Shown: positions 30,700-33,990, numbered from the stretch's first letter. The stretch: DNA of 35,330 bases from Paraglomus brasilianum (GCA_910592345.1 CAJVPI010000324.1:1-35330); one strand, 5' to 3'. The notes: generated from the letters alone by a model not told the origin. Made by a program: numbers and translations.

Positions 30700-31276
30700 A
30701 TGCTGATGTGATTTCTGAATACAAAGAGGAACAAGCAGCACAGACAAGAAAAGGAGATAGACTTAACAAACAGAGATTGAGCTAATCATGCAACAACTTC
30801 ATCTCCAACCAAGTAATGAAGGCTAGAAAATGCACCAATAAAAAGTGATTTGTGGAATGTGATGAAGCAGAATCTTCTGGTGGAAAATGAATTTGGCAAG
30901 AGCATGATGGTATAAGTGTAATACTGCATATGCTTAGCTACTATTACTATCTGCAGAAATGCTTAATATGTAGACAATGCTATGTTTGGGATAATTCCAC
31001 TGATGAAAAATATGCTACACCCTAATACTAATGCTTATATATGGGGTATGCTGCAACAAAACCAAACAAAGTGAACATTTTATAAATGAGAGGCTGATTA
31101 TGATGTGGCTGTAAAATTGATCAGTGTGACTAATGGCAGTTTGAAAAGTAATAATGGTGCTCCTTAATAGCTTATGGACTTGTTAATTTTAATGATCACT
31201 TTATCATATCAGAATGTGATGAATAAAAACCATAACATGATGAATATAGGATTATCTCTACATAAAAAATGTTAAT

Positions 31277-31534
31277 ATGAAACTAATTTACATTAAATCC
31301 ACTATGGAACCAAAGAATTACAGCACTATTAGAAGCATTCTGAAAAAAGAACAAGGAGAAAAAATTGCCCCTTATGTTTTTAAAATCAATGATACCAAAC
31401 TTTTCCAGAAATATCTAGATCAAGAAAAAATCACTTATGAAATTTACCAAGAACGAAAAATAATAAACCATAAACAAACCTTAACCCCAACTTATGATGA
31501 ACCAAGAAAAAAACGAAAACTTGAAGAAATGTAA
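31277..31534 (+). CDS. Small intronless hypothetical protein, probably of endobacterial (MRE) origin
   Basis: 85-aa K/I/E-rich ORF with strongly A/T-ending codons. It converges on the code-4 gene ending at 31566 with only 31 bp between stops. No Trp codons, so the genetic code cannot be tested here. Confidence 0.5.
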   Translation: MKLIYIKSTMEPKNYSTIRSILKKEQGEKIAPYVFKINDTKLFQKYLDQEKITYEIYQERKIINHKQTLTPTYDEPRKKRKLEEM

Positions 31535-31565
31535 TAAAGGAAAATAAATCCAACCATGATTGAAA

Positions 31566-32453
31566 TTATCTCCTCTTTTTCTTCCTTTTCAATAATACAT
31601 AAAAAAGACCTAGACCACATAACACTAAAGCTATAAGTCCAGATCATAGTAAATTAGCATCAATTCGTTTATTTTTGTCTGTCATAGTCTTTTCCTTGGC
31701 TGCTTTTGTAAAGTCTTTATCTTTTAAATCAGAAACAGAAGTAGTAAGATGATAAACATTAGAGCCTCGAATATTTCTAGTGGTTTTGTAGCCAGGAAGA
31801 ACAAAATTTTTTTCTTTTCATGCTTAACAAACTTTTCTTGACACTCAGAAATAATTTTTGCAGAATCATCAATAAAGATATCAAAGTCAGGATGGTTTGT
31901 TTTTATTCAATTATCAATTACATATAAATTTCACATTTTGTTTGAGGAAAATAAGCAAAGGTTTTTTTTAAATTTTTCTTTCTTTCCTCTATATGCATAA
32001 GGAAAGTGGCCATCCTTACATTCTCTAAATGCACTTATGATAATTAGTTCTTCAATTAAATCTACCTTTAGAGTAAGAAAAAGTTCTTTAGCTGAAGACA
32101 ATCAAGCTACTTCAAATCTTCAGGGAGATCCTCAGAAATTTCCTGAAAAAGGCTCTGTTAATTTATTTCTTTTTTTCTTCTCAAACTTTTCAACTGCTGC
32201 CTTTTCTTGTTCAGTGCCTTCAAACCCAATTATTTTATAAGAAACTCCATAATCATTTGGCTCAACCACAATATGTTCTAAACCATTTTGTAAAAGAAAT
32301 ATCAAAATTACCAACTTCATAAATGCCTGCTGATCTAGTAGGCATAAGAACTTTATCCCAATACCAATCACAAATAATTTTCAATTTTCTTCCCTTTGCC
32401 TGAGATTCTTTTTTAATTAGCTCATATAGAGAAGAAATTCTATTCTGATTCAT
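31566..32453 (-). pseudogene. HAD-superfamily-like protein with C-terminal membrane anchor, read with TGA=Trp (code 4); frameshifted; MRE-like
   Basis: KLKIICDW(YW)DKVLMP (DxD-like motif I), LIEELIIISAF, N[TGA]IKTNHPDFDIFIDDS (motif IV DD), VLPGYKTTRNIRGSNVYHLTTSVSDLKDKDF, then NLL[TGA]SGLIALVLCGLGLFYVLLKRKKKRR-TAA. In-frame TGAs at 32132, 32120, 32102, 31907 and 31644. Several frameshifts, some in A-runs. Confidence 0.7.
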
Positions 32454-32471
32454 ATAGTTTGCTTTATATAC

Positions 32472-33990
32472 TTATTTTAGTATACTTGTAGGCTTTGGGC
32501 AAGTAATGTCTTTGAATTTATCTCTAAAGATTTAATTTCTTTGGTAATTTCGGAAACACTTGCTTTTCTGGTTTTTGATGAGTAAAAGAACCATCAGCAA
32601 CTAGCTGAGCTTTGACAACTCCAGGATTAGTTGTTTCAAAAAGAAAATGTTGATATTTTTGCAACCCACTCAATTTCTTAAAGAAAATTCCCAACACAGA
32701 GTTAAGATCCAAGTATGGAAAGCCTTTTCCATTGTCATAACACTGAGCTTTATTTAATCCAGCTGTACTCGATTTTTTCACAACTTCAACAATATGATCC
32801 ACACAATCTACTGTTGTTTTTCGATAAAGCTTTTTAATCAGTCCGAAACTACCATCACACTTGAATTTAGTATGTCCAGGTACCATGAAATTGAGCTCAA
32901 CACTTTCATAATAACCGCAAATTGCTAAATATAGGTAAAATCAAATGGTAACATTATTTTTATTCTGACCACCGGCATTATCACAAGTAATTTTTAAATA
33001 CTTTTCACCTTTATTCAGTCTCTTAATTCCATCGAAAACCATACTCCGTGTACCATTAGGGCTTTTGCCGATAATTTCGTCTTCATCGAGAACGTAATTA
33101 ATTTGTTCGCGTACTGCTTCATCTTGAATACCAAATAAATGCACTTTACGTGGAGTGAGATAATAAATTTCACTTACCTGTTGATCGGAATGGGGTACGT
33201 GAACGTTTTGTGTTCAATCATAACTATAATGAGCAGTCGCGTCAACAATACTACAATAATCAGTTTTATTTCTTGTTATAAAATGCTCATCTACCAATTT
33301 TCTTTGTTCATCTGCTAATTTGGTATTTTTGTGATAATAGTTTCTCTCTAACTTAGCTTTACCTAGATGTTCTTTGAATTTTTTCAGTAAATCTTTGGCT
33401 TCTTCCTTACTGTAAAATGTTGACACGGCTCATGATTTGAATATAAGGCGTTAATTGGTATCATAACTTGCGGAACGCGTCATATTTTAACCATTTCAAC
33501 GCGCTATCGTTTTCGAGACCTGCGATAAAATTGCGATAGACCGATTTATAACTCGTTTCGGCTGGCAAAAGTGTAAGCGATTGAGTAATTCGATTTACAT
33601 TTATACCAGGACTTGGTAATCCATGAATTTCGGCATAATTCTCGAGAAAATTTTTCACGGCAGTAGCAACAGTTATATCAATGGTTATTTTGGTTTTCCA
33701 TCGCGGCACCCGTTTGATGTTACCGTGAATGCGCGGTATTATACCATTCGTTGCTAGGTAATTTCTGACGTTTTCGAAGTGAGTGCGACCAATTCCCAAC
33801 ATATTGAGATACGTTTTCTGACAAAGTGGCGTATTGCGATCTCAGTAGTAAAGCGTTTGCTTATTAGTACGTGTTTTCTTTTTAAGACGTCGGCTGGCAG
33901 TTATTTCTCCACTATTCATTGCTTTTAGTTGAGCCATTACACATATATCTTGTTCAGATCTAGAGAGAGCTTGAAATGCTTCACGTAAGA
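32472..33990 (-). mobile_element. Sola-like DDD transposase read with TGA=Trp (code 4); 5'-truncated with small deletions
   Basis: The four ORF-track pieces are one gene. 33426->32524 is a single frame broken only by TGA at 33214 and 32941; ~33988->33430 is broken only by TGA at 33842 and 33461. Motifs: HYSYD[W]TQNVHVPH, CDNAGGQNKN, FMVPGHTKFKCDGSFGLIKK, C-terminal DITCPKP before TAA at 32472-32474. Confidence 0.8.

Follow-up and report, generated by a model that had tools for sequence, protein, structure and literature searches.

A decayed nuclear copy of a Sola1-like transposon with genetic code 4 frames and endobacterial-type cargo in Paraglomus brasilianum

The window, by which we mean the whole stretch of 35,330 nucleotides of Paraglomus brasilianum DNA analyzed here, is fungal nuclear DNA of low coding density. 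It holds the relic of a Tyr/Ser-Thr kinase gene, an Erv46/ERGIC-like exon with a GT-AG intron, and a Tc1 relic. Tryptophan in these fungal frames is written TGG, and this includes the neighboring Tc1 relic (six TGG). CpG is near-absent from 29.9 to 32.7 kb, while its observed/expected ratio is near 1 in the remaining window. A tandem duplication with a period of ~435 bp occupies 29870-30700 and resembles the relic of a Sel1-repeat gene. Just past the truncated transposase described below lies a 353-bp MITE-like element (34170-34522), bounded by inverted ends of 29 bp (93%) and containing 21-bp repeats. At 27255-27308 on the plus strand there is another copy of the terminal sequence, degraded (86% over 50 bp to locus L012) and with neither a transposase nor gene C after it.

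Within this setting, the block from 31043 to ~33998 is a decayed, 5'-truncated copy of a Sola1-like DUF7869 DNA transposon (Table 1). The original prediction had described it as a one-off piece of bacterial chromosome starting at 31270. It is instead a copy of a repetitive mobile element that has a fixed terminus and a eukaryote-type transposase, and its left edge lies at 31043, at the terminal sequence of the family. The predicted gene layout was confirmed in the window, namely three intronless frames, 18 bp from the TAA of the transposase (32472) to the ATG of gene B (32453), 31 bp separating the convergent stops, and TAA as the terminus of both TGA-bearing genes. The predicted decay is also evident, as the transposase and gene B are frameshifted and the transposase is 5'-truncated. 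The proteins had been called otherwise coherent, which they are not: the transposase carries several deletions and gene B four frame changes.

Table 1. Coordinates of the features at and beside the block, in positions of the window.
Feature	Position	Strand	Observation
ATAT beyond the end of the element, probably one half of an AWWT target-site duplication	31039..31042	+	AWWT pattern at other ends
Terminal TIR-like sequence, begins GGGG	31043..31078	+	Same 36-mer closes 10 copies in 9 loci
Subterminal non-coding repeat	31079..31276	+	79-90% identical in L010, L012, L019, L024 and L073
Gene C: 85-aa Trp-free protein, predicted ferredoxin-like domain and basic tail	31277..31534	+	In 22/80 loci
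Gene B: decayed cargo, NT5C/HAD-like, C-terminal membrane anchor, endobacterial-type	31566..32453	-	21 other family members
DUF7869 (Sola1-like) DDD transposase remnant	32472..33998	-	Pfam PF25273, E 2e-15; four TGA at Trp columns
Tc1/IS630-like DDE_3 transposase relic	34608-35328	-	Standard code; internal control for code usage

A scan of soil metagenomes returned 209 relatives of the transposase, and the best 80 of these 209 were kept as loci for the counts given below. The terminal 36-mer matches 11 times in 273,798 nt of loci and not at all in five shuffles, and summed contig depth rises at its bin in all four runs. AWWT precedes 9 of the 10 element ends in nine metagenome loci (seven ATAT, two ATTT, one ACTT). 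Together with the ATAT at the window's end, this is the AWWT target preference that the available parts of PMC3845634 give as a hallmark of Sola1. Both outer ends were found together in one copy neither in the loci nor in the window; hence the target-site duplication itself is unobserved. The left outer end was found in none of the loci, which show only an inner repeat remnant just upstream of some transposases. GGGGC at 34018-34022 was a candidate for the missing second end and was rejected, as no locus matches it. The subterminal repeat contains no tRNA and no Rfam family.

The layout that recurs across loci runs from the transposase through variable, intronless code-4 cargo to an inverted gene C and the fixed end, with AWWT outside. 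Element ends lie back to back or nested in L024 (6744 and 7079) and L019 (2922 onward), which suggests insertion near existing copies. A short motif, TATATAGG plus ~10 bases before the ATG, is shared upstream of the transposase and gene C starts in many loci; it is imperfectly palindromic and could be a promoter or a recombination site.

The transposase remnant is 83-86% identical in DNA to intact code-4 copies up to 33988. By eye, ~9 further bases match beyond this position, placing the cut at ~33998, and the window copy is without its first ~35 codons. Its lesions comprise a cluster of frameshifting deletions near 33426-33398, a 10-bp deletion at 32578 and a larger 3' deletion near 32526. 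The protein is of eukaryotic type by its Pfam family and by its nearest Atlas clusters, which are eukaryotic, and its nearest named relatives come from Ambispora, Geosiphon and Diversispora. The predicted model of an intact relative, of low confidence (pLDDT 52.5), shows an RNase H-like order and resembles DDE transposases and integrases, with the IstA transposase as the best PDB match (E 8e-4). D389 and D431 are conserved in at least 95% of the alignment (A3), and D311 ends the first strand of the model. The predicted fold suggests that this is likely an RNase H-like transposase with a DDD triad, the triad assignment being our own reading. We take DUF7869 to be Sola1 from its motifs and the target sequence.

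In the transposase copies of L023, L029, L051, L061, L063, L065, L068 and L072, many Gln-to-TAA stops are added to the TGA at Trp columns, a RIP-like decay. A 33-member transposase cluster (P0013/P0014) on JGI contigs of 39-236 kb has Trp in the final three columns and begins past the second; it may be a lineage with few TGAs.

The four TGA codons of the window transposase (plus-strand positions 33842, 33461, 33214 and 32941) were predicted to stand for tryptophan, and alignment with homologs places all four on Trp columns. Ungapped homologs carry Trp there in 2/2, 17/17, 25/28 and 72/77 cases, respectively. At least nine in-frame TGAs had been counted across the block; seven are supported, the four in the transposase and three of six in gene B. 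At five Trp columns, the best 80 of the 209 soil relatives have 200 TGA and 134 TGG, and 53 of the 80 loci hold a single frame free of TAA and TAG. All 26 full-length frames (at least 540 codons) among these 80 contain TGA, and TAG stands at Trp columns in four cases. For 20 non-redundant copies, the median dN/dS is 0.084 with a maximum of 0.24 (70 of 190 pairs with dS<1.2). Third-base changes per invariant column amount to 3.75 for Trp, against 2.2 for Lys, 1.9 for Gln and 1.5 for Glu, so that swaps between TGA and TGG on the tree are at least as frequent as the synonymous third-base swaps of these residues. Because of the TGA and TGG counts, the presence of TGA in every full-length frame, the low dN/dS and this synonymous-like toggling, the sequences indicate that the family is translated with TGA as Trp under purifying selection. 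The short metagenome contigs may be a collapsed consensus of young copies, which would still mean TGA in the active form.

Other sources of the TGA codons were considered. Hypermutation by the host was rejected, as the window shows no CC/GG or TGG depletion, the four sites have no common context, the Tc1 relic retains TGG, and loci with true CAA-to-TAA decay look different. An element-encoded suppressor tRNA or known structured RNA was likewise not found; a tRNA search of the 80 transposase loci (best 80 of 209) returned none. In 18 fungal gene models from Ambispora, Geosiphon, Diversispora, Gigaspora and Dentiscutata, Trp columns are skipped in 35 of 58 cases, compared with 1308 of 6985 (19%) for other columns; this pattern suggests stops at the Trp columns in the nuclear copies of several genera. 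Standard-code annotation thus conceals the family, with introns invented around the stops.

Of the 80 loci (best 80 of 209), 22 contain gene C, which is inverted downstream as in the window in 16, forward upstream in five and inverted upstream in one, and is a regular part of the element. Two of the three block genes, the transposase and gene C, are element machinery, present across many fungal-context loci. Relatives of gene C are found in Geosiphon, and P0134 has a gene C-like segment ahead of a PemK domain. The predicted model of the protein (pLDDT 73.5) has a generic fold (best Z 7.6) and gives no function. Since it contains no Trp, gene C is silent on the genetic code. In L020, a frame at 3-911 on the minus strand, upstream of gene C and the transposase, looks to us like a TnpB/Fanzor-type protein, with no Pfam hit.

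Gene B carries the endobacterial signal. Three of its TGAs align to Trp in the closest relatives, 32134 and 31909 (P0263) and 31646 (P0005). Of the others, 32122 faces Arg, 32104 faces Phe, and 31933 falls in a short frameshifted stretch off the homologous frame. The family comprises at least 21 other proteins, some from Paraglomus and Entrophospora assemblies. One member, CFW92772.1, is encoded on a contig of 648,879 bp from DhMRE, the endosymbiont of Dentiscutata heterogama, and shares 39% identity with the window frame over 102 aa and 33% with an intact member over 248. The link to Mollicutes-related endobacteria (MRE) drawn in the original prediction is thereby borne out, at the distance of these 33-39% identities. 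An MRE origin may hold for gene B; the transposase is eukaryote-type. Most of the gene B tree is unresolved, the window copy does not stand beside CFW92772.1 in it, and it names no donor. For an intact member ending in a membrane anchor (P0242), the Atlas structure search names NT5C (TM 0.48/0.67), and a Pfam search of the family gave no HAD hit; by its predicted structure, the family resembles NT5C-type HAD phosphatases, a putative activity. A transposase followed by a gene B-family member is also seen in L054 and in P0100, a gene model from a 211-kb Geosiphon scaffold. An 863-aa protein on a 125-kb JGI contig (P0240) fuses two gene B-family domains to HIT hydrolase domains.

The cargo is rich in TGA. 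Across 23 non-independent cargo ORFs, with up to nine TGA each, TGA outnumbers TGG by 108 to 24; under the reading of TGA as Trp, no cargo ORF can end at TGA. Tandem cargo genes are spaced 1-13 bp apart in 11 of 12 loci. The TGA share is lower in the transposase (56%, four columns) than in the cargo (82%). The use of code 4 claimed originally is thus upheld by selection on TGA as Trp in the transposase family and by the TGA-rich cargo. Since table 4 also covers mold mitochondria, a mitochondrion or other cytoplasmic replicon with TGA as Trp might have hosted the code-4 phase in place of MRE. Among the 49 flank and cargo proteins scanned, there is no mitochondrial gene family, and the sole named non-fungal relative of the cargo is from MRE, which makes this reading highly improbable.

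Database scans added little. Queries with gene B and with an alignment of gene C found no match in GTDB by an insensitive scan that requires exact 8-residue words. IMG/VR (gene C, transposase, gene B homolog, a cargo protein and the terminal motif) and PLSDB (transposase, gene C, gene B homolog and a cargo protein) gave none either, again with insensitive scans of collections from which MRE may be absent, and the PLSDB match for P0134 covers its PemK part only. These blanks are therefore not evidence of absence.

The nuclear location of the block agrees with the fungal genes that flank it and with contigs that bridge its left junction. Such contigs come from X2 and X3, among four runs of one sample that may be the source of the window, and those of X2 also bridge gene C, gene B and the transposase. 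The locus was found at ~97-99% identity in soil runs X6 and X7 from two other studies, and a contig of X7 reaches across the left junction by 35 bases. Flank and gene B depths are 374 and 298 in X2, 4.6 and 3.2-4.5 in X6, and 4.5 and 4.4 in X7. In a further soil run, X5 (63% read), gene B is covered in scraps only. Over the end, gene C and the transposase, summed depth is tens to hundreds of times higher in each of the four runs compared; it is not a copy number and merely hints at many copies. Of the two junctions to be checked, the left is bridged in X2, X3 and X7; the right junction and the whole block are spanned by no contig among those listed. The block is a true nuclear insertion, and its locus is present in independent samples.

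Two further explanations were considered. An assembly chimera or endosymbiont contamination could be suspected, as the available parts of PMC11423566 describe MRE contigs in fungal assemblies and no listed contig spans the right junction or the whole block. The bridging of the left junction, also in an independent study, argues against a chimera, as do the similar flank and gene B depths in X2, X6 and X7, the contigs of X2 that join all three genes, and the frameshifts in the block genes; we regard this as the least probable of the readings considered. Copies of the element could confound MRE-contamination screens of fungal assemblies. The second explanation, that a piece of MRE chromosome was inserted passively and only once, with no role of the transposase in the transfer, would agree with the single-copy-like depth of gene B and its MRE homolog. 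It is very unlikely, given that the block begins exactly at the terminal sequence of the family with AWWT outside, that the same gene order recurs with different cargo in 16 of the 80 loci (best 80 of 209), and that the transposase is eukaryote-type.

The neighbors of intact copies point away from a bacterial chromosome. In the 52 annotated loci of at least 3 kb, no bacterial housekeeping genes were found, and thus no copy was seen in an MRE chromosome. The sequence shared among intact copies stops ~30 bp upstream of the transposase start codon. Further upstream, the loci hold differing kinase, ATPase or unclassified fungal-type genes in the same orientation, at distances of 149-761 bp in the 12 loci measured; L016, L020 and L040 are exceptions. 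These upstream genes follow the standard code, with nine TGA (eight terminal or near the ends) versus 84 TGG, and that of L003 has three GT-AG introns of 73-110 bp. We read them as presumably Crinkler-like, partly from a model in which gene C is fused to a Crinkler. A Tc1 gene is among the flanks past the right end. A single clade has CpG near-erased in the transposase, upstream gene and cargo alike while the transposase is intact, as if a working lineage had long resided in a CpG-methylating compartment. A correlation of CpG between transposase and upstream gene (p 0.016) comes from no more than two or three clades and so does not count as a valid test. With no bacterial neighbors and with standard-code fungal ones, translation in endobacteria can only be inferred.

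The same neighborhood would suit the main rival reading, an element confined to the nucleus whose UGA codons are recoded to Trp in the cytosol, be it through A-to-I editing of these codons, through a suppressor supplied by the host or through a factor of the element itself, for example the Trp-free gene C. The MRE-type cargo would then be an old capture. Intact transposases directly behind standard-code fungal-type genes, one of them with introns, would be expected of it, as would the lack of bacterial flanks in the annotated loci, transposase CpG content that tracks the upstream gene by clade, and a summed depth over the repeat parts that in three samples exceeds that of the flank by tens to hundreds of times, this depth not being a copy number. 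What such an element does not readily explain is the operon-like packing of the cargo and its 108 TGA against 24 TGG, with up to nine TGA in each ORF, nor is there a tRNA in the 80 loci (best 80 of 209). TAG is also almost absent at Trp columns. Fungal A-to-I stop repair favors UAG, and the scarcity of TAG thus counts against editing. We know of no recoding of UGA to Trp in these fungi, and consider this explanation unlikely.

We instead consider it probable that the transposase is translated in MRE, that the element gathers MRE genes there, and that copies insert into nuclear DNA, where the enzyme cannot be made from them and they decay. A fungal Sola element would have entered MRE and drifted to TGA there, its transposase being made on MRE ribosomes, and would likely have picked up MRE genes as cargo. 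On bacterial lysis, the MRE-made transposase might reach nuclear DNA with the excised element; alternatively, the transposase protein might act in trans on nuclear copies. Repeated jumps of the element into the fungal nucleus are likely, and the nuclear copies, unable to make their own enzyme, would decay, as in the window. The DhMRE homolog of gene B and the TGA-rich, operon-like cargo count for an MRE phase, and the skipping of Trp columns in fungal gene models fits stops in nuclear copies. The TGG of the window's fungal frames and the GT-AG intron of the Erv46-like gene also count for this explanation. Against it count the lack of any copy with bacterial neighbors among the annotated loci, the fungal upstream genes, the Tc1 flank, the CpG erasure, the GTDB blanks, the lower TGA share in the transposase and the missing left end.

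More tentatively, and with somewhat less than even confidence, spliced, standard-code fungal genes of kinase/Crinkler-like type, which the nucleus alone could express, and the code-4 transposase and bacterial cargo, which the endobacterium alone could translate, may form one unit, a dual-code shuttle that cycles between endosymbiont and nucleus. If so, the element would outsource its transposase to the ribosomes of the symbiont and constitute a standing vector for two-way gene transfer across several early-diverging fungal lineages. The TGA codons act as a built-in marker of the site at which the enzyme has to be translated. The alternatives are a nuclear transposon dependent on endosymbiont ribosomes and UGA recoding by these fungi, and either would surprise specialists; the shuttle or the recoding, if shown, would be categorically new.

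The window thus holds a real nuclear copy of a Sola1-like transposon that uses code 4, carries endobacterial-type cargo and is apparently undescribed. The literature covered by our search, largely openly accessible papers, contains no report of a code-4 Sola element and no mention of DUF7869. Wolbachia inserts and NUMTs are passive captures without defined ends. They resemble the present case in that symbiont-code DNA decays in host chromosomes, and differ from it in that the unit in the window has a fixed terminus and its own transposase.

Among fungal systems, the available text of PMC8227670 describes MRE-to-fungus transfer in Diversispora epigaea, where endobacterial-type genes likewise sit in a Glomeromycotina nuclear genome. 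There, single genes are said to have been gained for defense, whereas here the code-4 cargo is dead and rides a repeated transposon. Transfer from host to MRE, as presented in the accessible portions of PMC10507103 and PMC4916391, similarly brings eukaryotic genes into a code-4 endobacterium that is rich in transposases; the annotation of MRE genomes uses table 4 (PMC10507103), and mobile elements are numerous in them (PMC4916391). The MRE transposases named in those portions are bacterial IS types (IS1595, IS200/IS605), and the same portions describe no eukaryotic cut-and-paste element and no return trip.

The closest likeness is to Sola1, which has been reported from Rhizophagus and whose features are given in the parts of PMC3845634, PMC5751038 and PMC4455052 available to us. 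The window family shares with it a eukaryote-type RNase H-like transposase, a likely DDD triad, an end starting with GG and AWWT outside the end. It differs in being under selection with TGA as Trp, and in its operon-like code-4 cargo, its small Trp-free end gene and the standard-code fungal gene that often lies upstream, with one end known here.
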